Below, one piece after another: positions 1 through 31,300 of a DNA stretch of 64,000 nt. The notes under the pieces were generated by a model. The model worked only from the letters and a program-made list of their open reading frames with translations, had not been told where the DNA came from and did not search any database. Position 1 is the first letter of the stretch. The number at the start of each line of letters is the position of its first letter. The stretch lies in UHGV virus genome UHGV-1351772; one strand, given 5' to 3'. A program made the position numbers and the translations under genes. This stretch comes from a virus.

Positions 1-3000
1 GTTAAGACAGGCGATAAAATGGTGTTAACCTTAACGAAAACCGATTTCGGTATCGATAAGATGGATAACACCATGCCGATCGCTAAACCGGTAACAAAAG
101 CGTTAGCGAATGTGCTGAAAAATAAAAGTGTGAAGGCGCACACGCATACCACTGCCGATTTGGATAATGTCCCGATTGGTAGCGCAACGGTGGACGGTAT
201 CTTACAACTGTGGGATGCGATTGATACCACGAATGATAAAGCCGTCACATCACGCCAAGGGTGGCTGTTCGCAAAAGAGATTAAGAGGGTCTCTGATAAA
301 CTGAATACCCTCTTGCCCGCATGGACAACGGCCGGGAGCAAATATACCAACAATTCGATATTGCCGATCTTGTCGATGGGTAATTACGAAGGTTATGGTA
401 AAAACATGGATGCGCTCCAGATGGTTATAGGGGTACAACAAGGTAAGCTTTATGCTTTAATTAGCTCTAAATCCGCCCTTCCGGGAACTGAGGGTATTTA
501 TTACGCTGTTGCTGGGTTAAAAAACGACAAAAGTCTCGGTGAAATTTACAAAACAACTTTCCGTTATAAGCCGAAAGGGTTAGAGACGAATTATCCGGGG
601 GTGGAATTAAAAGAAATTACCGTTACTGGTACCGAAGCATTTATAGCGAAGGGCAGCGACGATAATTATTATTTAGTTAAACTGAACGGTTCAATGGATT
701 ACAGCAAACATACCGATGTCAGGTTGGTAACTTTCTCAGAATTTGTTTCAGAAACAACATGGGAATTTGTGCCTAATATGTTCATGGATCGTGTGGTCAT
801 AGCCGATAACGGTGTCTATGTTTTGCGTACGATGCTAATGGCCGATCTGAAAAACAATACTCTGGTGGACTACATTAAGGATACCCCACAACCCATGTTC
901 CGTGTTGGGTTATTGCGGCTTAATAAAACCGATCGGTTTGAACAGGTTGATTTAAGGTCTACACGAAAAATCGGTAAGTGTGCCGATTTGGTTGAACCTG
1001 GCGCGTTCGATGTAGATAATCCGAATACGAAGCGCCTTGCCTACTTCACTGCGGAAGGCAAGGCGCTGTGGACAGTGAATTTACAATTAACTAGAGGGTC
1101 GTCAAGATGGATAACGCCCGTTGTTAAGGACGGTCACTTGTTAACCGTCGGCGTGTCTGGCGTTTGTCTTGGTTTTTCTTCAACGAAAGGTACCACGTTC
1201 GGGCCATGGAATGGTGCTTATCGTCTTGACCTATTAACCGGGGAGGTTGGGTTAGAGACAACTAACGTCTTCCCAATCAAAATCGATACTACAGGCTGTT
1301 ACTTAAAAGACGGAACAAAAATAGAGCTGAAATGGAAATGGGCTACTCGAAGTTCTGGCTATATGGCCGACAATAGAATCTGTGTCGGTGATATGGTTTA
1401 TTCTTGCTGCTGTTCGACAGAAAAACAACTCGCACCATCTCTCCATTACCAGAAACTCCCAGAAGGGGTTAGTTATCTGGACTATGTTAAGTTGAGTGTG
1501 GGGTATGAGGGGCAATCTACGTTTGAATATCGGATAAACCCTGTGGTGGGTTCGGTGTGGAAACCGTCTATGACCTTCCCATTGTTCTTCCCAGGAACAA
1601 ACAAAGTATGGCTTAAACATCAAAAAACGGCTTATTTCATTGAAGCCGAATATGATAAAAATACGACTTACGGTTATCCTGGATACGGTGGTTTTGGACC
1701 AACATCCCGCCGTGTTGAAAAAACAGCGAACGAATACGGCATATTGACAAATATACCGCTGGTTGTTACGCCAGACATACCGAAAGGTCTACTAGATGGG
1801 GCTTACTTTATCGGTGCTGAAAGTAAACCATGTAAAGTTGTTTACGGTACCACTACGGTGGCTAGTGATCGGTTGTCTATCGATGCGGCAGAATGGGCGA
1901 AGTTGACTAATATTGTTCAGTCCAGCCAGTTCTCTGGGGCTTCTAACGGCAACGCCTATGAGCGGATTAGCGTAGCTAAGACCAAAAAGAACAACTACAG
2001 TTTGTCCTTTTGGGTGCTTGGTCAAACGATGTCTGGTGGTCCGCTTTGTATCGCGATAGTGAGTCTTATCTATAAAGACACTGACGGGGTAAATAAGTTT
2101 GCTTTTTACTTCTTTCAGGTAAAACCGACTATAACCAACGGGGTCATAAGGTTCGTTAGTTCGGAAGCGAGAATGATGACGTTCAGGGAAAAAGTGGCCA
2201 GTAACGCCATTAATCTCTCACCCACAGCTTTTAATGGTGAACTTAAACAACGCTACGGTCAAGTTTTCCTTTATTCGCAAGACGGACAAAAGTTCAGATT
2301 CTCAATACATAACCTGGTTGGCGGGAATCTTGTAGGATCAGAGATTTCTTTTGCTTTTGGGATAAACTTGACTAAAAAAGGAGAATGGTTTACCGGCGAA
2401 ATTCATCGGGCGCGGGGCTATACGTATACGCTGAATAATACATCTGAAGTCTATATACCCGATCTCTCGGGCATCGCGCTATTGACTTGTAACTCGGAAG
2501 ATTTAAACGAGTTGTATCTCGGTGGCGAACAGTATAGAATCTCTGATTTGTTTAACAAAAAATATACTGTTATCGATAAGATTATTATTGGCGGCGTACA
2601 AACACAGAGCGGTTGGAATTTCTATCTGACGGAGGAAACCGAGTTAAGTTTTGGAAATAAAAGATATACCGTTCCAAGATGGTCCGTTGATTTAAGCGAT
2701 GAATTCCCGACTAATCACGCTAACCAGACATTCTACGTTTATGCTGAAGTGGTCGGTTCTACTGCCCAATACCGCATCGGTTTAGAGCAGTTAGCTGATA
2801 CCTCGTCGAGACTGTTTGTTGGGACAGTAACCACTGATTCGAACCGTATTACGGATATCAGTATCGATAAAGTAAAACGGTTAGGTCGTGTAAAAGAGCT
2901 GGAAAATCATGCCTCGGTTGTTGATCAGCACGATGTGGCGCAGGCGTTCGACAGGAAAACTGGTCCACTATTAACAGTGGTTAATAAACCCGTTAAAGCC

Positions 3001-3876
3001 ATTACAGCATCTGCGAGCAAGGGTGCTGGGTATGTCGATGGTCAGAAATGGAATACGTTGTCCGGGATTACAACACGTTCCAGGTTGCCGGTACAGGAAA
3101 CCTATTCAGGTTATAAAAGTATCAGCAGGGTGGCGTATGAGAACTGCGCTGACCAGTTCTGGCAGAAAGCGGTTGCTGCGAACGTTGCAGCGGCTACTGC
3201 TTCTGAGAACAAACAAGCAGCAACCGCGAACATGAAGTGGTTGGGTGCGTATACGAAACCGACTACCGGCGAGTATGCATATCTGGCATTGAGTCTGCGT
3301 GTTAAAGTACCTGGCGATCCTGGTACTACTAACCGTCGACTGAAAATCAGGCTTGCGGCCCCGACAGGTATAACTCAAGTTCGTTACGGGCTAAATCAGT
3401 CTGGTGGTACGATGACTGAACAGACAGTAACGCTAACTGCTAACAGTTACTTGGAAAAAGAACACGCGGGATTTAAGCCAGCTGAAGAAGTCCGCCTTCA
3501 TGCTACGTTTGTCATTCCAAAAAATGAATACGATAGCTACCGGACCAAATTTGGTGCTGTTCAGCTGATTGACGTTGAGACGAACACTGTCATTAAACAG
3601 ACAGATATCGACACACCGTTTATCGTGTACACCGCCACGGAGTTAGCGGCACAATCTGGTTTGGTGTATAAAGCGGTTAAGGGTCAGTTCCATCAACTCC
3701 CGGCTCAACCTGTCGTCATTGTAACCGATGGACAGACAGGGACTACGCCACCGGTGAAAACCTCGTTTGCTGACGGGACATTAACGGTCTACGTGGCAAC
3801 CACGTACGACGCGGTTAACCCAGCACAAACCCGCGATATCGATAAGCTCCAGTTCAATCTTATGTTTACATCTTAA
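1..3876 (+). CDS. large virion fibre/structural protein, 5' end probably outside the window
   Basis: Frame is open from nt 1 (no stop before the ATG at 19); >1285 aa; lies directly upstream of a coiled-coil fibre gene; no catalytic motif recognised. Confidence 0.5.
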   Translation, partial: VKTGDKMVLTLTKTDFGIDKMDNTMPIAKPVTKALANVLKNKSVKAHTHTTADLDNVPIGSATVDGILQLWDAIDTTNDKAVTSRQGWLFAKEIKRVSDKLNTLLPAWTTAGSKYTNNSILPILSMGNYEGYGKNMDALQMVIGVQQGKLYALISSKSALPGTEGIYYAVAGLKNDKSLGEIYKTTFRYKPKGLETNYPGVELKEITVTGTEAFIAKGSDDNYYLVKLNGSMDYSKHTDVRLVTFSEFVSETTWEFVPNMFMDRVVIADNGVYVLRTMLMADLKNNTLVDYIKDTPQPMFRVGLLRLNKTDRFEQVDLRSTRKIGKCADLVEPGAFDVDNPNTKRLAYFTAEGKALWTVNLQLTRGSSRWITPVVKDGHLLTVGVSGVCLGFSSTKGTTFGPWNGAYRLDLLTGEVGLETTNVFPIKIDTTGCYLKDGTKIELKWKWATRSSGYMADNRICVGDMVYSCCCSTEKQLAPSLHYQKLPEGVSYLDYVKLSVGYEGQSTFEYRINPVVGSVWKPSMTFPLFFPGTNKVWLKHQKTAYFIEAEYDKNTTYGYPGYGGFGPTSRRVEKTANEYGILTNIPLVVTPDIPKGLLDGAYFIGAESKPCKVVYGTTTVASDRLSIDAAEWAKLTNIVQSSQFSGASNGNAYERISVAKTKKNNYSLSFWVLGQTMSGGPLCIAIVSLIYKDTDGVNKFAFYFFQVKPTITNGVIRFVSSEARMMTFREKVASNAINLSPTAFNGELKQRYGQVFLYSQDGQKFRFSIHNLVGGNLVGSEISFAFGINLTKKGEWFTGEIHRARGYTYTLNNTSEVYIPDLSGIALLTCNSEDLNELYLGGEQYRISDLFNKKYTVIDKIIIGGVQTQSGWNFYLTEETELSFGNKRYTVPRWSVDLSDEFPTNHANQTFYVYAEVVGSTAQYRIGLEQLADTSSRLFVGTVTTDSNRITDISIDKVKRLGRVKELENHASVVDQHDVAQAFDRKTGPLLTVVNKPVKAITASASKGAGYVDGQKWNTLSGITTRSRLPVQETYSGYKSISRVAYENCADQFWQKAVAANVAAATASENKQAATANMKWLGAYTKPTTGEYAYLALSLRVKVPGDPGTTNRRLKIRLAAPTGITQVRYGLNQSGGTMTEQTVTLTANSYLEKEHAGFKPAEEVRLHATFVIPKNEYDSYRTKFGAVQLIDVETNTVIKQTDIDTPFIVYTATELAAQSGLVYKAVKGQFHQLPAQPVVIVTDGQTGTTPPVKTSFADGTLTVYVATTYDAVNPAQTRDIDKLQFNLMFTS

Positions 3877-3916
3877 CGCCACGGGACAAGGACGTCTCGG
3901 ATTAAGGAGAGTGGCC

Positions 3917-5116
3917 ATGGCCTCCATTGTATACCAATACCCTTTAGATTTAACGGGAAGCCTAACCTCTAACGCCGTGGAGCGTCAGATTACGTTAGGT
4001 ACAGGTAAAGTTAACCGTGCGTTTGCTTTTCCTGACGGACCGTTTTATGCTGATACGTTCCGCTTGCGGGTTGCTAACCGACCCGATGCGACGTATGAGC
4101 GCGGAACGGACTACGAGTTGATTTTTGCACACCCGGCTTACGAGAAATTGACGAAGAACCGGGAAGTGGTAATGGCGGTTGTTGTAACGAACACCGCGAT
4201 TCCGACCGATATCACGGTATCAGCGCAAGTAGTCGGGGGCCCGCAGTCGGCAAACGTGCCCGCGATAGAACAGGCGATTGCCGAGCTGAATCTCGATAAT
4301 CGAACTGTTGGCTTTAAAGACTTGCGAAATGTTCCTGATACATTTCCTTCGGCACCAACGTATAAAGACGTCGGCGATATTTACGGCTTCGAATACATTA
4401 TTACGGTGCTCGCTGGCATCAAAGATGCGATAACGGCGGGCGATGCTGTACAGCTTGAGAACATCAAAGCGATTCTCGAAAGCCTGAAAAACGATTTCCT
4501 GGACGCGCTGAACGCGCACATTAACGCCACGGGTAACGTCCACCATCTGGATATTCATCAGGTTAACGGGTTAACAGAAACGGAGATCCGTGCACTGATC
4601 CGTGATGTGCAGTCTGCTATCGATGCAACCATTACTGATATTAATGCGTTGAAGAAAGCAGACGAAGCGTTAGGAAAACGTATTGATGCTGTTGTCAAAT
4701 CTTTGGAAGCGTGGAACGACCAACTTAACATCGTTGCCCAAAACTACCAGAAGATGGCACTGGCAATGGCGAATCTAAACTCGCTAGTGTTACAGTTACA
4801 GAAAAATATCAACGATCTGAGCACCAAACTCAACCAAGCGATTCAGCGCATTGCTGCGTTAGAACAACGGGGTAATGAGTCCGATCAGAAAATTGATAAT
4901 CTGCAACAAAACCTGGATGCGCTTAAACAACAGGTTGCGAATAACACGAACGCAATCAGTCAGGCGAATCAGAACCTACAAAACCATATTGCGGCGGATA
5001 ACCCACACACAGGCTATCTCCACAAGAAATACGGTGGTGTGGTTCAGGCTCCGGTGCACGTTAACGCTAACTTGACGTCCCGTGATGACGTTCAGGCAGA
5101 AGCGGGTACGAGATAA
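3917..5116 (+). CDS. fibrous virion protein with a long C-terminal coiled coil (tail-fibre-like)
   Basis: AGGAGA RBS 6 nt before the ATG at 3917 (track start 3911 is GTG flush against the RBS); heptad-like Q/N/L-rich segment (NLQQNLDALKQQVANN...). Confidence 0.5.
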   Translation: MASIVYQYPLDLTGSLTSNAVERQITLGTGKVNRAFAFPDGPFYADTFRLRVANRPDATYERGTDYELIFAHPAYEKLTKNREVVMAVVVTNTAIPTDITVSAQVVGGPQSANVPAIEQAIAELNLDNRTVGFKDLRNVPDTFPSAPTYKDVGDIYGFEYIITVLAGIKDAITAGDAVQLENIKAILESLKNDFLDALNAHINATGNVHHLDIHQVNGLTETEIRALIRDVQSAIDATITDINALKKADEALGKRIDAVVKSLEAWNDQLNIVAQNYQKMALAMANLNSLVLQLQKNINDLSTKLNQAIQRIAALEQRGNESDQKIDNLQQNLDALKQQVANNTNAISQANQNLQNHIAADNPHTGYLHKKYGGVVQAPVHVNANLTSRDDVQAEAGTR

Positions 5117-5183: not shown

Positions 5184-5579
5184 ATGGCGATCAGTGTTAA
5201 AAATGTACGTGACCGAATCACCAACGTAGAGAACCAAATGGCAACTGGCCCACGTGTTGATCCGCAAGTTGCGTCGAAAGCACATAATGCCGCCGACACT
5301 TTTTCGGGTTGGACGCCAAGTCGGTTAGACTGCGGGGGGAGTTGCAGCTGGACGTGCTCAAACGGTTGTACGCATGGCTGTACGAGTTGTTCGGGCACCT
5401 GTACGTCAGTGTGTGTAGGTAGCTGCTCCTCTGCGTGCGGTAACCAGTGTACTGGATGTAGTTCAACATGTTCCGGTGGGTGTTCTGGTTGCAGTGGGAC
5501 CTGTGGGGGCGCTTGCTCGGGCCGTTGTTCTACGGGTTGTTCTGGTGCTTGCTCTGGTGGCTGTTCTGGCCCAACCTAA
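5184..5579 (+). CDS. Cys-rich precursor-like peptide 1 (leader plus about 80-aa Cys-periodic core)
   Basis: AAGGA RBS then ATG at 5184; about 50-aa Cys-free leader, then DCGGSCSWTCS followed by C-x3-C repeats of small residues (about 21 Cys). Confidence 0.6.
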   Translation: MAISVKNVRDRITNVENQMATGPRVDPQVASKAHNAADTFSGWTPSRLDCGGSCSWTCSNGCTHGCTSCSGTCTSVCVGSCSSACGNQCTGCSSTCSGGCSGCSGTCGGACSGRCSTGCSGACSGGCSGPT

Positions 5580-5589
5580 GAGGTGAAAA

Positions 5590-5988
5590 ATGGCAATTGG
5601 ATTACCTGCGCTACAAGCGCGGCTAAATAACATTGACAACACTGCATTGAAGAATACGGGTGCAGTACAAAACTATATTCGTGGGAAAGCGACGAACAAC
5701 GCAGACTTATTCGGTGGGCAAGCTCGCAACCACTATGACTGTGGTGGGAGCTGTAGCTGGACCTGTTCGAGCTGTTCTGGTGGTTGTACAGGGAACGCAT
5801 CAGGCGGCTGTGGTTCTTCCTGTTCTGCAAACTGTGTATCAGGTTGTAGTGCAGGCTGTAGTGGATGTTCGAATACCTGTTCTGGTGGGTGTTCAGGAAG
5901 CTGTACGGGGAGTTGTTCTAACTCGTGTGTAGGAAACTGTTCTGCAGGCTGCTCAGGTAGTTGTTCTGGTGGGTGTTCTGGGAGGTAA
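5590..5988 (+). CDS. Cys-rich precursor-like peptide 2 (paralog of peptide 1)
   Basis: AAGAGGTGA RBS; same architecture with conserved DCGGSCSWTCS junction and CSGx repeats. Confidence 0.6.
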   Translation: MAIGLPALQARLNNIDNTALKNTGAVQNYIRGKATNNADLFGGQARNHYDCGGSCSWTCSSCSGGCTGNASGGCGSSCSANCVSGCSAGCSGCSNTCSGGCSGSCTGSCSNSCVGNCSAGCSGSCSGGCSGR

Positions 5989-5990
5989 TT

Positions 5991-6197
5991 GTGATTAGCC
6001 TTAAGAACCTTCGTGATCGGTTAGTAACAGCGGAAGGGTATATTACGACCGCTAACGCAAACAACTATATTGCAAACCAGGGCACCGTGTCCTCAACCAA
6101 CAACCTTGCCGGTTTACCTTTAAGCCATTATAACTGTAACGGCGGATGTAGCTGGTCGTGCAGTGGTAGCTGTAGTAAAGGTGCGGGGGGAAGGTAA
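5991..6197 (+). CDS. Cys-rich precursor-like peptide 3 (short paralog, GTG start)
   Basis: GGAGGT RBS overlapping the stop of peptide 2; in-frame GTG at 5991; leader ISLKNLRDRL resembles peptide 1 leader ISVKNVRDRI; core NCNGGCSWSCSGSCS. Confidence 0.45.
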   Translation: MISLKNLRDRLVTAEGYITTANANNYIANQGTVSSTNNLAGLPLSHYNCNGGCSWSCSGSCSKGAGGR

Positions 6198-6346
6198 CTA
6201 AGCCCTCCAGTGGTAGTATGTCTATTACGCAATACCCGAGTTAATCGTACGGGTTTACTGCTGAGTTTCAAGTCACCGGTAGGCAATGGCGCGGTGGGTT
6301 CTATACCCTGAATGTCCGTTTGACCGTGAAATAAATGGAGCAATCA

Positions 6347-7234
6347 ATGAAGAATGATTTACATTTAGCGTACAAAACAATTTTCAATCATCCACTTCAC
6401 ATTTCTTCCCCTGATTCCGTACGTGCACACTTAGCAGATGAAGTTCGTCTGCTGACTCAGTTGCCGGGCGAATGGCCTAAAGTGCGCGGACGTTTCTTTA
6501 CCGATCGTAAAAACTATCGTGTAGAAAATACGTTTAAGATTCGTGATCTGACGGCAGAAAGTGTAGTGGTCTTTACCGGTGACTCCGAGTTGCGTGGTAA
6601 ACTGGTTGCGGGTAAATATTTCTTTAGTGACGGGATTTTGAATAACTCCGTAGATATGGAATTGTTCTTTACCCCATTTGAAGAAATGGGCGCAAAACCG
6701 GTTGCCCGTCGTTGGTGGTCACCGGATTACTTAGGCTCGTTCCCGTATTTCTTTACCCTGGTAACACCAGAAACGAAGAACTATTTCGATACGGAATCGT
6801 ATATCGAAATTGAAGGGTACGAAGCGTTAGGGATTAATTGCTTAGCGGATTTAATGGCGTATAGCTATAAGTTCGTGTGGGATCGTGAACGTTCCGTGTG
6901 GGTTGCCCTGACGGATGAACACGAAATCACAAAACGCATCCGTAAGCCTTGGATGCAGCATTTGATTCAAACACGTATTGGCGAGCATCCGTCAACAGAA
7001 GCGGATCTGGCAAAACTCGTTAGTTTCTTAATGACGAAAGTCACGTTAACTGACGAAGAGAAAGCAGCAGTGTCGGCGGTGTTGGACCGTAACGTAACGT
7101 TAGCGGATTTAGAACGTTTAAATGTCCGTTATAAAGACCTTAACCGTATTTTGGAAGCGTATAACTCTCCATTTTTGTTAACCCCTGGTGCTAACGTAGA
7201 CGACGATCCTTTGTTCGCCATTGATTATATTTAA
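6347..7234 (+). CDS. hypothetical protein, member of the Cys-peptide/radical-SAM operon
   Basis: GGAG RBS before the ATG at 6347 (track start 6335); co-oriented between precursors and rSAM genes; no motif recognised. Confidence 0.55.
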   Translation: MKNDLHLAYKTIFNHPLHISSPDSVRAHLADEVRLLTQLPGEWPKVRGRFFTDRKNYRVENTFKIRDLTAESVVVFTGDSELRGKLVAGKYFFSDGILNNSVDMELFFTPFEEMGAKPVARRWWSPDYLGSFPYFFTLVTPETKNYFDTESYIEIEGYEALGINCLADLMAYSYKFVWDRERSVWVALTDEHEITKRIRKPWMQHLIQTRIGEHPSTEADLAKLVSFLMTKVTLTDEEKAAVSAVLDRNVTLADLERLNVRYKDLNRILEAYNSPFLLTPGANVDDDPLFAIDYI

Positions 7235-7255: not shown

Positions 7256-8179
7256 ATGACAACCAATGCAGAACCAAGGTTATCGAATCGTTTATACGAT
7301 AAACCCACCGTATTGTCCGTAGTCGCTACGTCCAAGTGTAACCTGGACTGTAGCTTCTGCGGTGGAGCCTATTACATGAATCGTGAAGATTCTCCGCGAG
7401 AGTTTCAACGTGAGCGAATTTTGGAAGCGCTGGAAGCTAATCCAACCATTACCGAAATTCAGTGGACGGGTGGTGAGCCATTACTGGCAACCCGTAAAAT
7501 TGAGGCGTTTGTTGACGAATTAAAAGTGATTCGTCCAGAACTCAAACACCAGTTGTATACCAATGGCTTAAAGATGCGTAAATCGCATCTCCCGTTGCTA
7601 AAACAGTTTGACAATGTCTACGTTAGCATCGATGGGTTTAAGTCGTCTGAGCGCCCGTTTATGCGCTTTATTGACGAAGGCTGTTACGAAGCACTGGAAA
7701 CGATCTACGAGCTGGATAATGTCCAGACTTGGGGTGTCCTGACACGGGACCGTTTAGGGGATAAACGCTGGCACGAAGATATTATTCAGCTGCACAGCGC
7801 GATTTACCATTACGGTTTCCGTGCAATGACGTTACTCTTAGATGCGAAAATGCCAAAACCTTTATCGCCCGACCACGTCATGAACTTTATTTACGGCTAC
7901 TATCAGGTTCAGGACAACATTGAACGACTGAATGTAGTAAATGGTCGTGAATGCGGCTTTACAGTAAGTAAAGTGTTTGAAGAAGGGTGTAACGTTTGCA
8001 GCGAAAGTCTTTGGATTAATGCAGACGGTGGTGAGCACCAACTCCAGAATGCACCTAACGTTCTGGAATCGGGGTGTAACCAACTGGCCTTCTCTATCGG
8101 TGTAGAAGCGTACGAATATATTCGTCGCGTAGTGATGGCAGGGCGTAATAGAGGGGCGGCAAATGAGTCAAGTAAATGA
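7256..8179 (+). CDS. radical SAM enzyme (putative peptide maturase)
   Basis: C-x3-C-x2-C (CNLDCSFC) near the N-terminus, GGEPLL SAM-binding motif, extra C-terminal Cys (CGF...C-x2-C...C) suggesting a twitch/SPASM-like auxiliary cluster. Confidence 0.8.
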   Translation: MTTNAEPRLSNRLYDKPTVLSVVATSKCNLDCSFCGGAYYMNREDSPREFQRERILEALEANPTITEIQWTGGEPLLATRKIEAFVDELKVIRPELKHQLYTNGLKMRKSHLPLLKQFDNVYVSIDGFKSSERPFMRFIDEGCYEALETIYELDNVQTWGVLTRDRLGDKRWHEDIIQLHSAIYHYGFRAMTLLLDAKMPKPLSPDHVMNFIYGYYQVQDNIERLNVVNGRECGFTVSKVFEEGCNVCSESLWINADGGEHQLQNAPNVLESGCNQLAFSIGVEAYEYIRRVVMAGRNRGAANESSK

Positions 8180-9485
8180 ATTCCCTAAGCAGTTAACGTA
8201 TCAGATCGTAACCAACCTTTCGTGTAACCTGGACTGCGAATATTGTTACGAACGTAAGTACCCACGTAACAACAAAGCAGCGGATATTGTTGATTTCTTG
8301 CACGCCTGTTTTGAACGTGATAAAAACGAACCGAATGTTGAAGTTATTATCGACATTATCGGTGGTGAACCGTTCATGCAGCCTAAACTGCTGCTGGCTG
8401 CGTTCGAAACCGCTGAGCAGTTGTGCAAAGAACACAACCGTCCGTTTATGTTTAGTATCTCCACGAACGGGACCTTGTTAGATCGTCCGTTGAACCGTGA
8501 GATTGTAGAACGATGGAAAGACAAACTTTCGGTTGGGGTTTCGATTGACGGCTTACCGGAATCCCATGACCGTTATCGTATCTTCACAACGACACGCCAG
8601 GGTTCTTACGAAGCCGCTGTACGTGGCTATAACTACTTAAAAGAGGTTGGCATTGCAGAACTCGGCGTAAAGGCGACCTTTACGTTAGAAACGCTTCCGT
8701 TCTATGCTGCGGGGATGAAGTCATTAATTGACATTACTGGCGGTGGGACAATTTCTGGAAACGTAACTTTCGAAGACGTTATGCCACGTAGCATGGCGAC
8801 GTCAATCGCTTTACAGATGATGGATGTGATAGATTATTGGGTTGAGAAAGGATTACACACCAACCCACGTAATATCTTATCGCACATCATTCCAGAAGGG
8901 TTGGATTTCGATACGATTTGGGAACCGAACTGGCGTGACCAGTTACTGTATAATGACACCGTACGGTTGAACCCAGAACGTTTACGTCCGTTCTGTGGGA
9001 CGTTAACGCACATGACGTGCTTAGGATTTGACCGTAAGATCTTTGGCTGTAACCGCTTTATGTCAACGGTAACGTCGCGTTCTGCGGTGTTTGAGTTGGT
9101 AGGTCGGGAATTCGTCAGTCTGGACAACGGTAAATTGTTAGAAGAGATTCAAACGCAATATACCAACTACCCAGAGACCTGTTTAGGTTGTCCGATGAAA
9201 CACGCTTGTGGTAGCTGCGCGGCGGCTTCTTACGAGAACGGGGAAGGAACGTTAGAAGACCGTAAAGCGTATCACGCTGAACGACGTCAGTGTGGCTGGA
9301 CGACAGCGAAACTGATGGTGGCGGAATACTGGAAACAGAAGATGGGTACGACGTCAGCAAAAGCGTTCCACGACACGAGTATGTGTTATTGTCCACGCTG
9401 TGTTCGTGAACGTGCCCAAAAGGAAAAATTATTAAGAGAAGCCAAAGATGAAACCAATTCTGATCAACAATATTACGAAGCGTAG
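8163..9485 (+). CDS. radical SAM enzyme with C-terminal SPASM-type domain (putative peptide maturase)
   Basis: CNLDCEYC (C-x3-C-x2-C), GGEPF motif, C-terminal CLGCPMKHACGSC (C-x2-C-x5-C-x2-C) plus further Cys; start overlaps the stop of the preceding rSAM gene. Confidence 0.85.
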   Translation: MSQVNEFPKQLTYQIVTNLSCNLDCEYCYERKYPRNNKAADIVDFLHACFERDKNEPNVEVIIDIIGGEPFMQPKLLLAAFETAEQLCKEHNRPFMFSISTNGTLLDRPLNREIVERWKDKLSVGVSIDGLPESHDRYRIFTTTRQGSYEAAVRGYNYLKEVGIAELGVKATFTLETLPFYAAGMKSLIDITGGGTISGNVTFEDVMPRSMATSIALQMMDVIDYWVEKGLHTNPRNILSHIIPEGLDFDTIWEPNWRDQLLYNDTVRLNPERLRPFCGTLTHMTCLGFDRKIFGCNRFMSTVTSRSAVFELVGREFVSLDNGKLLEEIQTQYTNYPETCLGCPMKHACGSCAAASYENGEGTLEDRKAYHAERRQCGWTTAKLMVAEYWKQKMGTTSAKAFHDTSMCYCPRCVRERAQKEKLLREAKDETNSDQQYYEA

Positions 9486-10020
9486 AATTCGACTTCTGGA
9501 TAAGTTTCTGGAAAACAGTAAGCTATTCGGTTGCTATGTGGTGATTAACGGTGAAGATTTTACCGATGACGTAAAACGCTTGCTGATTCGTCACGGTGTG
9601 ACTGTAATCATCCCAATGTACTGCACCGAACTTACTGACCTGTCGGTCGCGGAAATTGAAAAACGTAACCCAGGGTTTGAAGAACGGGTATTGGATTTCC
9701 CACGTCACAAAATTGCGTTTCTACGCCGCTCTTTAAGCGAACCCAGCGCAGAATCTATCACTGTGTTGGCATTGTCCTTCCCCGGCATTACTATCTTCGC
9801 AACACGTAACCCGAACTCACCGATTGATGGGTTTTACGATGAGCGAGAGAAATTTAATACCGTGATTTTTCCTGAGCTAACGCCAGAAGAATGCCAGGGT
9901 ATCCGTATCGATTGGGAATCGGATTTCGACACAAGATTCCGTCATATCGATTTTGAACTGTTAATCGAATTAGGGTTGATTAAAGGAGACGATGAATGTC
10001 TGCTACTGGTGAAGGCTTAA
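9448..10020 (+). CDS. hypothetical protein (operon member)
   Basis: Long ORF whose start overlaps the rSAM-SPASM gene end; no motif recognised. Confidence 0.5.
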   Translation: MKPILINNITKRRIRLLDKFLENSKLFGCYVVINGEDFTDDVKRLLIRHGVTVIIPMYCTELTDLSVAEIEKRNPGFEERVLDFPRHKIAFLRRSLSEPSAESITVLALSFPGITIFATRNPNSPIDGFYDEREKFNTVIFPELTPEECQGIRIDWESDFDTRFRHIDFELLIELGLIKGDDECLLLVKA

Positions 10021-10667
10021 CGAAAGAAGAAATCCGTCGTCGTTATTTTGCGCACGATTTACCGATTGACCGTCATGGTAACTACATGGAGAAAATCGGT
10101 AGCGAAGATCACGGCCGTACAGGGTTTTGTGCGTTACTGCACTATAAGTTGATTGATGGGATGTCTGATCGCGAAGCATTGGAACAAATGCGTAACTACG
10201 ACATGTCTGAAATCGAAGCACGGTTTACGCTACAGAAAGCGAAAGACTTTGTTAACGACACGTTGGGGATTGACCTGGAAGAAATTCGTACAGGTTTACG
10301 TTCCACAGTGCGGTACATCTTTACCGATGTTCAGAAAATTCTAAGCGCTTTGGAATTCCGTTATCAGGATGCACGCTATGCTGAGATTCAGGTAGGTGAT
10401 TTCACTTTCCAGGCAGATGAGAAGTCACAGGTAGCACTGAGTCGTTATATCCAGTCAGAAACTGCGCCAGCGTATTGGTTAACGGCTAACAACACCCGTA
10501 TCGAACCGTTTACGTTAGAACAGTGCAAGACGTTGCTGGCAGCAATCGTTGAGCGCGATCAAAGACTACACCACGCAATGTCTGAGCAGAAAAGAGAAGT
10601 CAGAGCTTGGGCTGAAGCACGTGATTACGATTCAATTAAAGCGTTTGCGTTAGAGCAAGGGCTGTAA
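9996..10667 (+). CDS. hypothetical protein (operon member)
   Basis: AAAGGAG RBS 7 nt upstream; last gene before a bidirectional terminator. Confidence 0.55.
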   Translation: MSATGEGLTKEEIRRRYFAHDLPIDRHGNYMEKIGSEDHGRTGFCALLHYKLIDGMSDREALEQMRNYDMSEIEARFTLQKAKDFVNDTLGIDLEEIRTGLRSTVRYIFTDVQKILSALEFRYQDARYAEIQVGDFTFQADEKSQVALSRYIQSETAPAYWLTANNTRIEPFTLEQCKTLLAAIVERDQRLHHAMSEQKREVRAWAEARDYDSIKAFALEQGL

Positions 10668-10688: not shown

Positions 10689-10725
10689 ATACCTACCTCC
10701 TATTACGGGAGGTAGGTATTTTTTC
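10689..10725. terminator. bidirectional rho-independent terminator between convergent genes
   Basis: Perfect 11-bp stem TACCTACCTCC / GGAGGTAGGTA flanked by an A-run upstream and a T-run downstream. Confidence 0.7.
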
Positions 10726-27497: not shown

Positions 27498-28280
27498 TTA
27501 AACACGTGAACCGTATATTGCACCTACTGCGTCCCATCTTGGCGCATTACCAGTAACAGCTGCACCAGCTGCTCCGCCGTTATATTCTGTACCGTTACCT
27601 TGAGTATTACATCTTCCTCCACCAGCACCGACATTACCACCCGAACCGCCTGTATATGCACTAAGAGACCCCTCACCAACAGATCCTCTACCAGGAGCGG
27701 AAATAGTACCAGCAGCCGCACCGGAACTCATATGAGAGGAAGACCCACCAGCACCGAATGGGCGACCACCGCCACCACCAAATATTAGTCTACCCCTGTT
27801 ACCGCCGCCACCGCCACCACCGCCTCCGGCAATAGCGCCACGGTTGGTTATACGCAGTCTGTTTCCTATTCCGTTCTGTATTGCGGTTCCACCTGCACCG
27901 CCTGGTGAGTTAGAACCGCCGTTGCCTCCTCTGCCGTATACTGTAACCCCAGGATTGATGATGAGGGTAATATACGAATTTGGAAGATTGCTAGGGAACT
28001 CTAAACAAGGAACCCCGCTACTATAAGACACTAAATCCCCTGTAATGGTCACAACGACAGCAGTAGAGCCTATGGAACGTAAATAGTTAATAAGCGTATC
28101 TTTATTGTAATTGTGATTAGCCCCGATCGAATACTGAGCCTCTTTTGATTTTCCCGCCAATTGCGACATCCAGCCTGGGACCGGCACACCAAGTGTGCGC
28201 ATCGCGCCAGACATCCAACCGTTACCAGCTTCAGCTTTTGCTGAAGAACCAATCCATCCGGGAGTCGCTGATACAGACAA
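27498..28280 (-). CDS. glycine-rich protein with poly-Gly segments (possible fibre-associated structural protein)
   Basis: Probable TTG start at 28280 after AGGTGG RBS (the track ORF runs to 28331 with no RBS); G9 and G5 runs plus GGxGG repeats. Confidence 0.5.
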   Translation of the reverse strand: MSVSATPGWIGSSAKAEAGNGWMSGAMRTLGVPVPGWMSQLAGKSKEAQYSIGANHNYNKDTLINYLRSIGSTAVVVTITGDLVSYSSGVPCLEFPSNLPNSYITLIINPGVTVYGRGGNGGSNSPGGAGGTAIQNGIGNRLRITNRGAIAGGGGGGGGGNRGRLIFGGGGGRPFGAGGSSSHMSSGAAAGTISAPGRGSVGEGSLSAYTGGSGGNVGAGGGRCNTQGNGTEYNGGAAGAAVTGNAPRWDAVGAIYGSRV

Positions 28281-28337
28281 AATAACCACCTTATAACGTA
28301 CTTGTGAGTCAGTGAGGGGGTTTCCCCTCACTGATAA

Positions 28338-31300
28338 TTATAACTTGGTCTCAATTATCTCCGACAACTCCTTTATTGCCTCAATAAGTAGAGCTATTTG
28401 GGCAGAGTTAGAGACCGTCAAAACGTCCTCACCATTAGCGTCTTTATAAGTAGAAACTGCTTCAGGTAACACTTTTTGTAAGGTCTGCGCTACAACACCA
28501 GCCTCACGATGAACATTAGTGGATTTAAAGTTCTCCTTTTTGTCGTATATTAAACCTGACAATTTCTTTACCTTCTCCAATGCATTAGTTATTGGAGAGA
28601 AATTACTTTTCAGTCGGGCGTCTGATCGTATATAAACGTCGTTAAAGTTACCGTTTCCACCACAAACCCAAGTACCGTCGTTTTGCAAATAAGCATTACC
28701 GTCAGTGCCATTATCAGTACGTGAGTTGTTTATCATGTAAAAGCCAAATTGACTGTTACCTAAACCACCAACAAAATATTTCCTATCAGCATGGTCTTGT
28801 CTTAACAATGCCTGAGCAGAACTAGTTCCTACCTTATTAAGACCAAAAATAACGTTATGGTCTCTCATGCTAATCCAAGAACCTGAGTTGCTGTTAATAG
28901 AATATCTATTTGCATAAACCCAAGTATTGGTTCTTATATCTCCGGTAACGTTGAGAGGTTTATTGCTTTGAACAGCCCCACTCGTAAAGCGTAAAACATG
29001 AGCATTATTGGCGTAAACATCTAGAACACCATCCCCGTTCTGCTTAAGGCCGGTGTCATTATCCCCTAAAACTATAGAGTTCCCGCCTAAAGCATTAGGG
29101 GTTCCAATACCCAATGCCCCATTCAATTGACCGCCAGATAATGGCAACGCCCCAACATCCGCAGCAGTTGGCTTGTTTCTCGTATTGTACACGCGACGCC
29201 AACCTGGTGAGTAAGCATCGCCGTTAAATACGTAGATAAACTCCGCATTAGTGAGTGCGCCGGAGACGCTCGTCGTTGTGGCGGTCGTTATACGGATCGT
29301 GTAGTTGTTTGTGCTATTGCCATTACTAATCACTTCTATAACGGCCCCAGCTAACGGAATAGCCCCACAACCCGTCTCGCTGTGTGGTATGTGCGCACTA
29401 GCGGCATAAGCCCACGCACAACGAGCAACCCACGATCTTGTGGTAAACGCGCCGTTATTTTTCAATAACGTCACTAGCTGTGCTGTAGTTATTGCAGCGC
29501 CATCAGCGCCAGTTTCTAACCAACCACTAGGCGATGCCGGGCAACCTATATCGGCAGGCCCTAACGATATATTTCTAGTGCCGTCAAATGCGATACCGTT
29601 AATGGTACGAGCTGTCTGCAACTTTGTGGCCGTGGCTGCGTTTCCGGTAGTCGACTGATTACCCGTCTGGTTTACACCAGGTAAACTGATGTCTTTAGTA
29701 CCATCAAAAGCCACACCGCCTATATTTCGCGCAGTCTGAAGTTTAGTCGCTGTCGCAGCATTACCTGTCGTATTCTGGTTGCCTTGCTGGTTAACCCCCG
29801 GTAAATTGATATCCCCAGTACCGTCAAACGTAACCCCACCAATTCTGCGAGCGGTTTTCAGTTTCGTCGCGGTAGCGGCGTTGCCGGTAGTATCTTGATT
29901 ACCTGTGGTATTTACGCCAGGAATGCTGTCACGGGCAGTATAAACTTGTGCCCAATCTGACCACGGCGCATCCGCTGTATCACGTCGACTACGAATATAA
30001 ACGGGTGCGTGCGCACCACTCGTCCCCGACCATCCGATTAACAACTCACCTTCACCTAGCGCAGTAGCGCCACCCAAATGCAGTAAGTTACCATAAGCGG
30101 TAGGATAACCGTTATTGTAAACTTCGTACATCTGAATACCAGGCGTACCTTTGTTTGAACCGGTTAGTGCAGTAACCCGACCACGACCCACCAAGGTGTT
30201 GATATTGATGTCAGCAGAACCATCGAATCTCACACCGTTAATATTTCTGGCAGTTTGAAGTTTAGTGGCTGTACCGGCATTACCCGTGGTGTTTTGATTA
30301 CCTTGTTGGTTAACACCCGGGAGGTTAATATCACCACTGCCGTCGAAAGCGACTCCACCAATTCTACGTGCGGTCTTTAATTTCGTTGCGGTTGAAGCAT
30401 TGCCGGTTAACTCGCCTGCTAACCCTTTTGCAAAGGTCTGTTTTTCTGCCCAGGTGTGTGCTGCATTCAATACAGGCATCTGGCGCGGTGTAATCGTACG
30501 ACTACCTTTCTCACCAGCGATACGTACTGCAAAGAATCGATAGTTGGCAGTAGACACCGTACTACGCCAAACCAACATACTCCGGGCTGAGGATGCGCCA
30601 TCTGATGGACCAACCAGAATGCTAACTAGGTTACCGTCAATAACACCCCAATCCATTCCCGTAGGAATGTTTTTCATGGTGTTAAGCGGCGTACAGATTA
30701 ACTCACCTGGTTTAAAGTCATAGGTTTGCCAGTCTAAAGGATCAACATTCGCACGTTCACCGCCGATACCTAATACCAGCGGAAGCGAATACGATGTGAA
30801 AACCTCACGCCAATCGCTCCAAGCGTTACCCGTACGGATACGTTGGAATTTACGACCTTTAGTTTCTACACCCGTACCGTATGTAGTATAATTCTGTTCG
30901 ACCCCTGTACCGTCTAAGCGTAAGGTAACTTCACAAACACCTAATATGGTTTCACCAGAAGAACCGGTAAGTGGGCCATTAGTTGCTTCACCAGTGACAC
31001 TGAAACGTCCCGGTTTAACGAGATCGTTAAAATTGGCTTTAAAGAAAGCACCGTCAGTCTGATAACCAACCTGAATCCAATCTTCCCATTGCGGGTTTGA
31101 TGAATCCCACGTTGCGGTCAAACCACGAACATACATCGTACCACGACGTGTGGTGTATCGTTGCAACCGTCCGAAAAGACCACCTTCCATTACTTCTAGT
31201 ACGCCTTGCGCGCCACCACCTTCTTCAGGGTAATGTCTGCTAAAAACAGCCAGCGAACTGGACGAGTTTCGCCAGTTACCCATATGCTCAGCGCCACCCA

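Follow-up and report, generated by a model that had tools for sequence, protein, structure and literature searches.

To our knowledge, radical-SAM (rSAM) thioether chemistry has so far been described for small peptides that are secreted and for a few enzyme cofactors. Two systems come closest to the phage locus described here. The CXXX-repeat system, defined by the models TIGR04114, PF27846 ("tSAM_targ_Cxxx_rpt") and TIGR04115 ("rSAM_Cxxx_rpt"), shares with our locus a Cys at every fourth residue and an adjoining radical-SAM/SPASM maturase. This NCBIfam family is a bioinformatic prediction only, and no paper on it was found in the literature searched. The phage version differs in that its enzymes score 115–155 bits against the TIGR04115 cut-off of 350, in that it adds a small rSAM enzyme and an accessory protein of 240–300 aa, and in its CSW(T/S)C junction and its association with tail-fibre genes.

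The ranthipeptides freyrasin (PapA/PapB) and thermocellin/SCIFF (CteA/CteB) also carry repeated Cys motifs, and their maturases are the closest characterised ones. The freyrasin substrate contains CxxxD six times, whereas the putative phage substrate has no acidic acceptor at i+4 and is 3–5 times more Cys-rich. Unlike in the ranthipeptide systems, no leader, RRE, protease or exporter was found in the phage module, and its putative substrate domain forms the C-terminus of structural fibre proteins.

The Cys repeat also resembles the C-terminal elements that stabilise phage fibres (collagen-like, the metal-binding His-x-His motif as in T4 gp37, the intramolecular chaperone Peptidase_S74) in its distal or C-terminal position after a "(D/N)A-x-x-L-x-G" motif. 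In contrast to these, it is unmatched among solved fibre structures and lacks an AF2 model, and we know of no fibre element that depends on dedicated radical-SAM enzymes. The proteins of the module (three Cys-repeat proteins, the accessory protein and both rSAM enzymes) belong to phrog_6085 and phrog_8030, both of "unknown function", and phrog_1802, "radical SAM domain-containing protein"; PHROGs records no link between them. In the literature searched, we found nothing on these Cys-repeat proteins, on radical SAM in SPN3US or on radical-SAM/SPASM enzymes with tail fibres, and no link between ranthipeptides and bacteriophages.

Three cysteine-repeat genes in a fibre operon

The DNA analysed, called the window here, is a 64,000-nucleotide stretch of the virus genome UHGV-1351772. 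A preliminary description had placed three paralogous, Cys-rich precursor genes near its start. All three were found where they had been placed, in the tail/baseplate-fibre operon of an SPN3US-like jumbo phage:

19..3876, + strand: very large virion protein, C-terminal 1285 aa; SPN3US gp168 ortholog; the ORF extends beyond the window start
3911..5116, + strand: coiled-coil virion structural/fibre protein, 401 aa; SPN3US gp167 ortholog, immediately upstream of p1
5184–5579, + strand: p1, 131 aa, 21 Cys; ATG start, Shine-Dalgarno AAGGA
5590–5988, + strand: p2, 132 aa, 20 Cys; ATG start, Shine-Dalgarno AGAGGTG
5991–6197, + strand: p3, 68 aa, 4 Cys; GTG start, Shine-Dalgarno GGGAGG

The gp168 ortholog is the first gene of a co-directional block, is syntenic with SPN3US gp168 and matches phrog_7449 over profile positions 437–1708 of 1714. 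SPN3US gp168 was described as a "baseplate/tail fiber candidate"; it was found in virions and was missing from a tailless mutant (PMC5694885). The 401-aa protein matched phrog_2163, "virion structural protein" (4e-103), and gave matches of coiled-coil type; its relatives are annotated as "viral fiber protein" or "virion structural protein", and SPN3US gp167 (44.8 kDa) is listed in the SPN3US virion mass-spectrometry tables. The p1–p3 genes, directly downstream of these two orthologs, thus lie in a tail/baseplate-fibre cluster. In SPN3US itself they are unannotated or mis-framed, so they are absent from the proteomics database and were undetectable in the published virion proteomics.

All three proteins matched phrog_6085 (E = 1e-24 to 1e-40; 1.5e-40 for p1). 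In p1, an N-terminal heptad-like helix leads into the motif AHNAADTFSGW; CGGSCSWTCS forms the junction, and a C-[ST]-G-x repeat of 82 residues with 21 Cys follows. The architecture of p2 (KATNNADLFGGQARNHYDCGGSCSWTCSS...) is the same. The most conserved of the paralogs, p3, has the same helix and junction and ends after 4 Cys (NCNGGCSWSCSGSCSKGAGGR), in agreement with its earlier description as a short version. The junctions read LDCGGSCSWTCS in p1, YDCGGSCSWTCS in p2 and YNCNGGCSWSCS in p3, as first written, with the signature C-x3-C-S-W-x-C-S common to all three. The heptad helix probably serves oligomerisation or docking.

The periodicity of the Cys residues had been called strict. It is real, with a Cys-to-Cys gap of four in 17 of 20 cases in p1, 16 of 19 in p2 and 3 of 3 in p3, but "strict" slightly overstates it: the other gaps in p1 and p2 are CxxC, plus a single gap of 8 in p2, so that overall ≈83% of the spacing is CxxxC with some CxxC. 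When the core residues were shuffled 100,000 times, the observed gap-4 count was never reached for p1 or p2 and was reached 188 times for p3. The cores run for ≈80 residues without Lys or Arg, and the residues between the Cys are Ser/Thr, Gly and other small residues, with none acidic at i+4. The NCBIfam repeat model TIGR04114 ("tSAM_targ_Cxxx") scored 20.4 bits on p2 against a cut-off of 20 and gave no match to p1 or p3 at E ≤ 0.01; precomputed PF27846 matches on homologs of the Cys-repeat proteins were mostly weak. An AF2 model of p2 as a monomer, from a 19-sequence alignment, had a pLDDT of 48, with helices at residues 5–20 and 24–37 only and no predicted structure in the Cys region.

Several GenBank records place genes over this DNA in a different frame or on the opposite strand (SPN3US gp100/SPN3US_0166; Huxley gp176/gp177). 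This would fit a reading in which the ORFs are not genes and the Cys frame is a by-product of a GC-rich, low-complexity repeat, an objection that the preliminary description had itself raised, or in which a different frame or strand holds the true genes. The codon-position test refuted it. Compared with a 93%-related phage, the differences at codon positions 1/2/3 were 11/5/74 in p1, 29/17/73 in p2 and 6/3/36 in p3, and across 8–10 lineages the three genes had dN of 0.06–0.49 with saturated dS. The number of Cys was almost invariant: p1 had 21 in 10 of 10 lineages examined, whereas for p2 eight lineages had 20 and the two of the lineage without p3 had 23; the stop-to-stop frames of two close relatives (L005 and L018) gave 21. 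The suggestion that phages might vary the repeat number while keeping the leader was therefore not borne out. Every aligned Cys was retained, also across genera at 65–70% nucleotide identity. Tandem Repeats Finder detected only two weak 12-bp arrays of 2–2.7 copies, and all six Ser codons are used, showing that the periodicity is not an artefact of a DNA repeat. The strong Shine-Dalgarno sites before all three ORFs, and the occurrence of the same protein domain fused to fibre proteins in other phages (see below), also speak against the non-gene reading, which we regard as scarcely credible. The Cys frame is a selected, coding frame, and each Cys is under purifying selection.

Enzymes encoded downstream

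The block continues in the same direction through an accessory gene, two radical-SAM genes and a gene pair, and ends at a terminator-like hairpin:

6347..7234, + strand: accessory protein, 295 aa; ATG at 6347, ORF listing begins at 6335
7256..8179, + strand: small radical-SAM enzyme, 307 aa; Pfam Radical_SAM 6e-14; motif CNLDCSFC
8163..9485, + strand: radical-SAM/SPASM enzyme, 440 aa; motif CNLDCEYC; no N-terminal RRE
9448–10020, + strand: 190-aa protein, jumbo-phage lineage only
9996–10667, + strand: 223-aa DUF4376 protein (Pfam DUF4376 5e-11), jumbo-phage lineage only
10689..10719, no strand assigned: strong bidirectional terminator-like hairpin, 13-pair stem then T-run, ending the + block

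No terminator or promoter of note was found within the + block, and the 150-nt spacer between p3 and the accessory gene showed no excess of folding over shuffled sequence (z = −0.25). The gene pair at 9448..10667 matched phrog_7988 and phrog_8169 and had weak matches to tail-fibre PHROGs.

The accessory protein has no recognised fold; it forms one family across the modules described below (hhalign 99.2%), with sizes of 240–300 aa. The small rSAM enzyme is homologous to the small rSAM enzymes of those modules, and its best solved relative was SkfB (3e-6). Three Cys at its C-terminal end, arranged as C-x2-C ... G-C, point to a site for a twitch-like auxiliary cluster.

The larger enzyme has the CxxxCxxC motif and the auxiliary-cluster Cys of the maturases in ranthipeptide and sactipeptide systems, with seven further invariant Cys in its C-terminal third; the invariant positions recorded are C278, C286, C296, C340, C343, C349, C352 and C377. 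It matched CteB (PDB 5wgg) at 1.2e-38, aligning only to chain residues 104–432; unlike CteB, it has no N-terminal RRE. Full-length matches were obtained to PapB (NF047865; 1.2e-33, 116.8 bits, below the cut-off of 340) and to TIGR04115 (6.5e-33, 114.7 bits, below the cut-off of 350), and the corresponding enzymes of two other modules reached 154.8 (L084) and 143.7 bits (L085) with TIGR04115. These full-length alignments scoring below the cut-off indicate that the phage enzymes form a sister clade of the TIGR04115 maturases. The likeness to ranthipeptide systems noted in the preliminary description holds up: two radical-SAM genes lie 1–2 kb downstream of p1–p3, and the larger product is most similar to PapB, TIGR04115 and CteB.

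Since the larger enzyme scores far below the PapB and TIGR04115 equivalog cut-offs, and indeed below that of every characterised family, its reaction could differ from theirs. The Cys-repeat proteins might then be rSAM substrates for another chemistry, such as Cys-to-formylglycine conversion of the anSME type, epimerisation, C-methylation or the covalent locking of a trimer through cross-links between its chains. The second-best solved relative of the large enzyme was indeed anSME (1e-16), and the presence of two different radical-SAM enzymes makes at least two reactions plausible. On the other hand, its closest full-length similarities are all to maturases that form Cys thioethers (CteB, PapB, SCIFF and QhpD), and the substrate offers little besides Cys, Ser, Thr and Gly. 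We consider another chemistry unlikely.

The module in other phages and in bacteria

A four-gene module, consisting of a Cys-repeat protein, the accessory protein, the small rSAM and the rSAM/SPASM enzyme, follows tail-fibre genes in P2-, lambda- and T7-like phages. Phages of unrelated types have kept it, and its neighbours are always genes for tail fibres. Searches from the enzyme found it in several prophages. In a lambda-like prophage of Deferribacter (L084), GpJ is followed by a 302-aa fibre protein, the accessory protein, the small rSAM and the rSAM/SPASM enzyme; the fibre protein ends in "...KATNADQLGGQAGSYYRCSDCSWTCSS" and ≈28 CxxxC/CxxC units. In a P2-like prophage of Campylobacter (L085/L019), the order is Baseplate_J, Tail_P2_I, a 384-aa Phage_tail_fib protein with CxxxC repeats at its end, the accessory protein and two rSAMs. 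Among the matches listed, a P2-like prophage of Clostridiales (L090) also carries the module. In a reciprocal search from p2, three of three homologs (P0140, P0130 and P0126) adjoined radical-SAM genes, and two of the three lay in T7-like tail-fibre regions. DNA-pattern scans of IMG/VR for the junctions CANGCSWTC and YRCxxGCSWTC gave one chance match and one relevant locus, another myovirus (L171) with the module directly ahead of the sheath gene. The 190-aa and DUF4376 genes of the jumbo phage are absent from the modules of L084, L085 and a further locus, L167. In L167, a single 668-aa protein fuses both radical-SAM domains, and a collagen-like paralog has the same N-terminal domain as the Cys-repeat protein.

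The position of the Cys repeat within proteins varied. It was fused to CBM5/12 and collagen repeats in P0204 and to a T7 tail-fibre N-domain in P0207, it stood at the end of a coiled-coil fibre in P0220 and in mid-protein in P0212, and in P0147, another homolog, the 4-Cys motif was followed by an extra domain of ≈150 aa. The junction itself proved to be the C-terminal end of a common tail-fibre motif, (D/N)A-x-x-L-x-G-Q-x4-Y-Y-x-C-x-x-G-C-S-W-T-C-S, which elsewhere joins full-length Phage_tail_fib, T7 tail-fibre N-domain, collagen-like and coiled-coil fibre proteins to the Cys repeat. The p1–p3 domain thus has sequence modules in common with recognised fibre proteins. The region before the junction varied in length and domain content between phages, and the junction was fixed.

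These observations bear on the original interpretation of p1–p3 as precursors with a leader. Read as a classical RiPP system, the N-terminal 50 residues would be that leader and the product would be a free, bioactive peptide like a ranthipeptide or sactipeptide, acting as a toxin, signal or anti-defence factor. The genes do encode small proteins adjoining homologs of PapB/CteB-like radical-SAM/SPASM maturases, p2 just reaches the "radical SAM target" repeat model, and bacteria have small stand-alone CXXX peptides. The ranthipeptide-type logic and the rSAM genes can accordingly be kept from that interpretation, but the disposable leader and the secreted peptide are not supported. No protease or exporter gene was found beside the module in any phage locus examined, and the combination of leader, RRE, protease and export that marks a RiPP was not found. 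The N-terminal 50 residues are unlike the disposable leader of a secreted peptide: they are variable and are replaced elsewhere by whole tail-fibre proteins, while the junction stays constant. Finally, the module invariably lies among tail-fibre genes, in positions that include those following P2 gpH-like and T7 gp17-like genes. We therefore rejected a stand-alone RiPP product, and find the classical RiPP reading unlikely.

Some bacterial CXXX-repeat loci lie outside phage contexts, so being part of a fibre is not an inherent property of the repeat. Among the matches listed, these were L087, L093, with a small stand-alone CXXX peptide, and L095, with a small CXXX peptide that has a Tat-like signal. 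The matches listed from an enzyme-alignment scan of genome contigs were mostly generic SCIFF-type maturases of Clostridia. In three other loci (L025, L026 and L038), a Cys-rich CxC motif occurs immediately before an S74-type "SDERLK" site, adjoining a radical-SAM gene.

In L005 and L018, an extra paralog of the small rSAM gene is inserted between p1 and p2. Such an arrangement, like the pairing of rSAM genes with Cys-repeat proteins in at least seven independent phage contexts, is left unexplained if the Cys residues form a structural ladder by themselves, through Zn or Fe thiolate clusters or through disulfides formed after lysis, with the rSAM enzymes acting elsewhere. A metal or disulfide ladder would fit the regular Cys spacing among small residues, and the lack of an autonomous fold in the AF2 model is what is expected of a domain that depends on metals or cross-links. 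T4-type fibres have metal ions along their shafts, in line with such a ladder. The CxxxC spacing, however, differs from the CxC and CxxC typical of metallothioneins, and we judge a ladder of this kind to be quite unlikely.

A proposed role in fibre maturation

The explanation that we favour, and consider reasonably probable, is that p1–p3 are fibre subunits with a Cys-repeat tail that is stapled by the radical-SAM pair. We infer that the proteins are present in the virion, that they are the substrates of the enzymes and that the product is a thioether. They would be small subunits of the baseplate/tail-fibre apparatus rather than precursors of a released peptide, with a predicted layout of an N-terminal heptad helix, a motif of tail-fibre type (N-A-x-x-L/F-x-G ... 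H-Y) and a C-terminal Cys-repeat domain, which opens with C-x3-C-S-W-x-C-S and goes on in C-[S/T]-G-x units. In the infected cell, the rSAM/SPASM enzyme, the small rSAM and the 295-aa accessory protein would modify the Cys-repeat tail. By homology, the likeliest reaction would convert Cys thiols to intramolecular thioether cross-links of the sactionine or ranthionine type, giving a ladder of small rings that may form a rigid rod or knob. Such a ladder would need no oxidising environment and would be resistant to reduction and to proteases.

More broadly, and more tentatively, the module may be a portable four-gene cassette with which tailed phages, whatever their morphotype, assemble a fibre rod or tip that is stapled by thioethers and independent of redox conditions, inside the reducing cytoplasm. 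In that case the cassette would represent RiPP chemistry put to use on structural proteins instead of secreted peptides, and virion proteins would mature in a way that has not been recognised before.

If the proposal is true, radical-SAM thioether chemistry builds part of a virus particle, and phages have a means of making covalent cross-links in the cytoplasm, whose reducing conditions keep disulfides from forming. Many deposited genomes omit the Cys-repeat genes or give them in the wrong frame, which has hidden them from proteomics. With its four Cys, p3 would be a minimal substrate, and SPN3US has a genetic system, making the idea directly testable. The proposal would assign a function to phrog_6085 and phrog_8030, to the paired "radical SAM superfamily proteins 1 and 2" of SPN3US-like and Erwinia jumbo phages, and to the uncharacterised NCBIfam/Pfam CXXX-repeat family. 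Unexplained radical-SAM genes were reported from a giant phage, among its structural genes and next to those for tail fibres (PMC12390700), and clusters of such genes in the tail-fibre regions of giant phages have been noted as "highly unusual"; fibre maturation of the kind proposed here may account for them.

Cysteine repeats and the gene block of p1–p3

The three small open reading frames (ORFs) p1, p2 and p3 lie within a single co-directional block:

19–3876 (+): very large protein, truncated by the window edge; ortholog of SPN3US gp168
3911–5116 (+): 401-aa coiled-coil protein; ortholog of SPN3US gp167
5184–5579 (+): p1, 131 aa, 21 Cys, strong Shine–Dalgarno
5590–5988 (+): p2, 132 aa, 20 Cys, strong Shine–Dalgarno
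5991–6197 (+): p3, GTG start, 68 aa, 4 Cys, strong Shine–Dalgarno
6347–7234 (+): accessory protein, 295 aa, 3' of p3
7256–8179 (+): small radical-SAM enzyme, 3' of the accessory gene
8163–9485 (+): radical-SAM/SPASM enzyme, 3' of the small radical-SAM gene
last in the block (+): two lineage-specific genes, one encoding a DUF4376 protein

The block is closed by a strong terminator at 10689–10719, a perfect 13-bp-stem, bidirectional terminator-like hairpin between the + strand fibre/radical-SAM genes and convergent − strand genes. For the accessory gene, the likeliest start is ATG 6347 (MKNDLHL...; a GGAG lies 7 nt before it), the one used in all homologs, rather than the first ATG, 6335.

The preliminary description of three paralogous ORFs with a common junction and a Cys repeat was confirmed. 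The N-termini are alike, with a heptad-like segment M-A-I-S/G-L/V-K-x-L/V-R-x-R-L/I..., and all three proteins have the junction C-(G/N)-G-(S/G)-C-S-W-(T/S)-C-S, which in p1 and p2 is followed by a C-[S/T]-G-[G/S/T] repeat of ~80 residues; p3 is a truncated paralog. The C-x3-C spacing had been called strict; the Cys–Cys gap is four in 17 of 20 cases in p1 and 16 of 19 in p2, counts matched by none of 100,000 residue shuffles, but the rest are CxxC spacings, apart from a single gap of eight in p2. DNA repeats are nearly absent across p1–p3 by Tandem Repeats Finder and all six Ser codons are used in the region, showing that the periodicity is kept up at the protein level. The residue following Cys is Ser or Thr in 66–80% of units, and the next is Gly in about 55%, a bias that may be a pointer to the acceptor residue, though no proof of it.

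A Cys-rich frame could also be a low-complexity artefact that is not conserved as protein, which had been named as the finding that would overturn the description. In codon alignments with a 93%-related contig, differences at codon positions 1/2/3 numbered 11/5/74 for p1, 29/17/73 for p2 and 6/3/36 for p3, and across 8–10 lineages dN was 0.06–0.49 with dS saturated. All the Cys are retained: the count is 21 for p1 in 10 of 10 lineages and, for p2, 20 in eight lineages and 23 in the two belonging to a lineage without p3. The conservation of the Cys and the codon-position bias rule out such an artefact; the Cys frame is constrained. The window comes from a jumbo phage, IMG/VR contig UViG_3300029126_000001 (225 kb), and its DNA is only 65–71% identical to that of Salmonella phage SPN3US and the Erwinia Machinavirus and Erskinevirus phages, in which the genes of the p1–p3 region are all present at a conserved position.

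The p1–p3 family is listed in PHROGs as phrog_6085, 'function unknown'. Several GenBank and RefSeq records place their ORFs over this DNA in different frames or on the complementary strand, and omit p1 and p3. In SPN3US (NC_027402, 5950–6979), the sole ORF annotated over p2 is out of frame (gp100/SPN3US_0166), and p1 and p3 are missing; in phage Huxley (6083–7105), gp176 and gp177 are annotated on the opposite strand over p1 and p2. The small radical-SAM gene of SPN3US (7911–8825) is annotated from an internal Met at 8031, by which CNLDCSFC is lost; its real start is ATG 7911.

The radical-SAM enzymes and the four-gene unit

The 440-aa radical-SAM/SPASM enzyme contains CNLDCEYC and seven more invariant Cys in its SPASM-like C-terminal third. 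Its best family matches, PapB (1.2e-33) and TIGR04115 (6.5e-33, full length), are far under the curated cut-offs, at 115–117 bits versus 340 and 350, respectively. PapB is the freyrasin ranthipeptide maturase, and TIGR04115 is the 'radical SAM peptide maturase, CXXX-repeat target family'. Among solved structures, CteB (5wgg, 1.2e-38), a thioether-forming SCIFF/thermocellin maturase, is the closest relative and anSME the second (1e-16). The CteB alignment spans only CteB residues 104–432; the phage enzyme thus lacks the N-terminal peptide-recognition domain of CteB. In the 307-aa enzyme, the radical-SAM core is generic and three Cys are C-terminal; among solved structures this enzyme is closest to the sactisynthase SkfB (3e-6). 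On the side of the repeat proteins, p2 scored 20.4 bits against TIGR04114 'tSAM_targ_Cxxx' (cut-off 20), and its homologs have precomputed matches to Pfam PF27846 'tSAM_targ_Cxxx_rpt'.

The contigs that encode distant homologs of the 440-aa enzyme (33–40% identity) were located. A Deferribacter lambda-like prophage (L084) encodes, after GpJ, a fibre protein of 302 aa with H-x-H-D-x-R-Y-Y-T-E-T-E repeats and the C-terminal end '...VDKATNADQLGGQAGSYYRCSDCSWTCSSSCTGSC...', and then a protein of 250 aa, one small radical-SAM enzyme and one of the radical-SAM/SPASM type. A Campylobacter P2-like prophage (L085/L086/L019) has Baseplate_J, Tail_P2_I, a 384-aa Phage_tail_fib protein with the C-terminal end '...MGCNGCSGSCSGSCSSGCTACSGCSGSCSGK...', a 250-aa protein, both enzymes and a sheath gene; in a P2-like prophage of Clostridiales (L090), Baseplate_J and Tail_P2_I precede a fibre of 530 aa, a Cys-repeat protein of 205 aa and the enzyme. 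In another myovirus (L171), the module stands directly ahead of the sheath gene. The reverse search, from p2 homologs, found radical-SAM genes in three of three contexts examined: another large phage (L168) and two T7-like podophages (L167, L169), where the gene for a protein with a T7 tail-fibre N-domain precedes those for a short protein and a Cys-repeat protein (206 or 213 aa), and then the radical-SAM gene(s).

In L167 (6921–11336), a 238-aa accessory protein is encoded between the Cys-repeat and radical-SAM genes, and a single 668-aa protein comprises both enzymes as a fusion. L005 (2575–3486) and L018, the phages closest to the window phage (93% identity in the radical-SAM/SPASM protein), carry between p1 and p2 an extra radical-SAM gene, absent from the window, whose product, 303 aa long, is a paralog of the small enzyme. 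The accessory proteins, of 240–300 aa, belong to a single family by hhalign (probability 99.2%, E = 1.1e-19, 247 columns). The genes are thus conserved, linked and, in places, fused. From these comparisons, the conserved unit is one of four genes, encoding a Cys-repeat protein or domain, the accessory protein, the small radical-SAM enzyme and the radical-SAM/SPASM enzyme, and it is attached to tail-fibre genes in every phage examined.

The N-terminal part and its link to tail fibres

The N-terminal part of p1–p3 had been described as a precursor leader, a reading that comparison with the homologs did not support. Only C51, C55, S56 and C59 are invariant across p1–p3 and the distant homologs in the alignment, and W57 nearly so, giving the signature C-x3-C-S-W-x-C. 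Most aligned sequences have '(D/N)-A-x-x-L-x-G-Q-x4-Y-Y-(R/D)' ahead of it (in the homolog P0133, 'GDADTLDGQHGSYYRCESGCSWTCS'). Upstream of this motif, the proteins are wholly unlike, with short helices in jumbo phages and, elsewhere, CBM5/12-like domains, collagen repeats, coiled coils, or Phage_tail_fib or T7-tail domains in place of the supposed leader. In L167, a 118-aa collagen-like (G-X-Y) protein and the neighbouring 206-aa Cys-repeat protein have an N-terminal domain in common. The p3-like homolog P0147 has an additional domain of about 150 aa beyond its four-Cys motif, and in P0212, a 549-aa fibre-like protein, the repeat is in mid-protein. When 1.84 billion representative proteins were searched with a profile, 482 clusters passed E <= 1e-3 and 86 passed E <= 1e-10; most are of 120–300 aa, with some fibres of 400–630 aa and a few very long multi-repeat proteins. 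Such diverse domains, including fibre domains, before a fixed signature argue that the N-terminal part of p1–p3 is a structural module and no disposable leader; the junction, judged in the same way, is where a C-terminal fibre domain begins.

Purified SPN3US virions contain gp167 and gp168, and gp168–170, absent in a tailless mutant, are baseplate/tail-fibre candidates; the virion list does not include gp163–166 (PMC5694885). p1–p3 were undetectable in that study because its protein database lacked them.

Elsewhere in the window, a 277-aa ORF at 27498–28331 (−) has 77–82% nucleotide identity to gp38, the distal long-tail-fibre adhesin/assembly catalyst, of the RB49-like coliphages JSE and Phi1, and adjoins a 1519-aa ORF at 28338–32897 (−). 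Finding such a T-even-type adhesin cassette in a jumbo phage points, tentatively, to an Escherichia host and to fibre tips having been exchanged horizontally.

Related systems and a proposed role

Of the named systems, the CXXX-repeat family in NCBIfam and Pfam comes nearest; we found no experimental paper on it in the literature searched. In characterised chemistry, the ranthipeptides (PapB, CteB) come nearest, and the chemical step may well be alike; however, the window locus is below the equivalog thresholds of both PapB and TIGR04115, making it no member in the curated sense, and differs from RiPPs in having no leader, RRE, protease or exporter logic. The literature searched also held no paper connecting radical-SAM enzymes to phage fibre proteins. 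The giant Aeromonas phage 332-Vera is reported to have eight radical-SAM genes in a large structural-gene cluster with five tail-fibre genes, called 'highly unusual' (PMC12390700), and the Burkholderia jumbo phage S13 has three radical-SAM genes (PMC11898562).

CXXX-repeat proteins also occur outside phages. Two Margulisbacteria/Termititenax loci (L087, 3886–5874; L088, 4387–6405) encode proteins of about 660–670 aa with related maturases adjoining; the L087 protein (662 aa, 112 Cys) has AIR-synthase-type and amidotransferase/phosphoribosyltransferase-type neighbours, likely for purine synthesis. Near related maturases are also a pair of proteins in an Acidobacteria MAG (L095, 5809–6938), each with a Tat-signal-like N-terminus and a tail of CxxxC, and a small stand-alone 88-aa CXXX peptide in a Clostridiaceae MAG (L093, 9461–9745). 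Judged by these loci, the repeat-plus-maturase pair is older than its use in fibres and more widespread.

Cys repeats of other spacing accompany radical-SAM genes in further viral contigs: two proteins of ~200 aa, with repeats of C-x-C-x-C (CSCDCNYACTCNCNY), in the midst of three or more radical-SAM genes (L020, 189–7738); fibre-like proteins with 'CICNSDCACNNVCACHNDC.CNY' immediately ahead of an S74-type 'SDERLK' site (L025, 5557–6240; L026, 8350–8862; L038, 8290–8994); and small peptides in which C-x-x-C recurs at period 3 (L021, 5534–6005; L023, 4069–4543). The pairing of Cys-rich fibre ends with radical-SAM enzymes dedicated to them may thus be a broader theme.

The earlier interpretation finds partial support: the likeness to radical-SAM targets holds up, but a leader-peptide natural product is probably not what p1–p3 are. 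The best explanation, which we hold with moderate confidence, is a Cys-repeat tail-fibre domain matured by radical-SAM enzymes. We infer that p1–p3 are the substrates and are incorporated into the virion. Their N-terminal helices would dock on the fibre/baseplate complex of the gp167 and gp168 orthologs, and the radical-SAM pair and the accessory protein, which may substitute for the missing recognition domain, would modify the Cys-repeat tails in the cytoplasm. The presumed bonds are, as the likeliest reaction by homology, Cys-derived thioether rings, and the product would be a rod or tip made rigid by covalent staples, independent of oxidising conditions.
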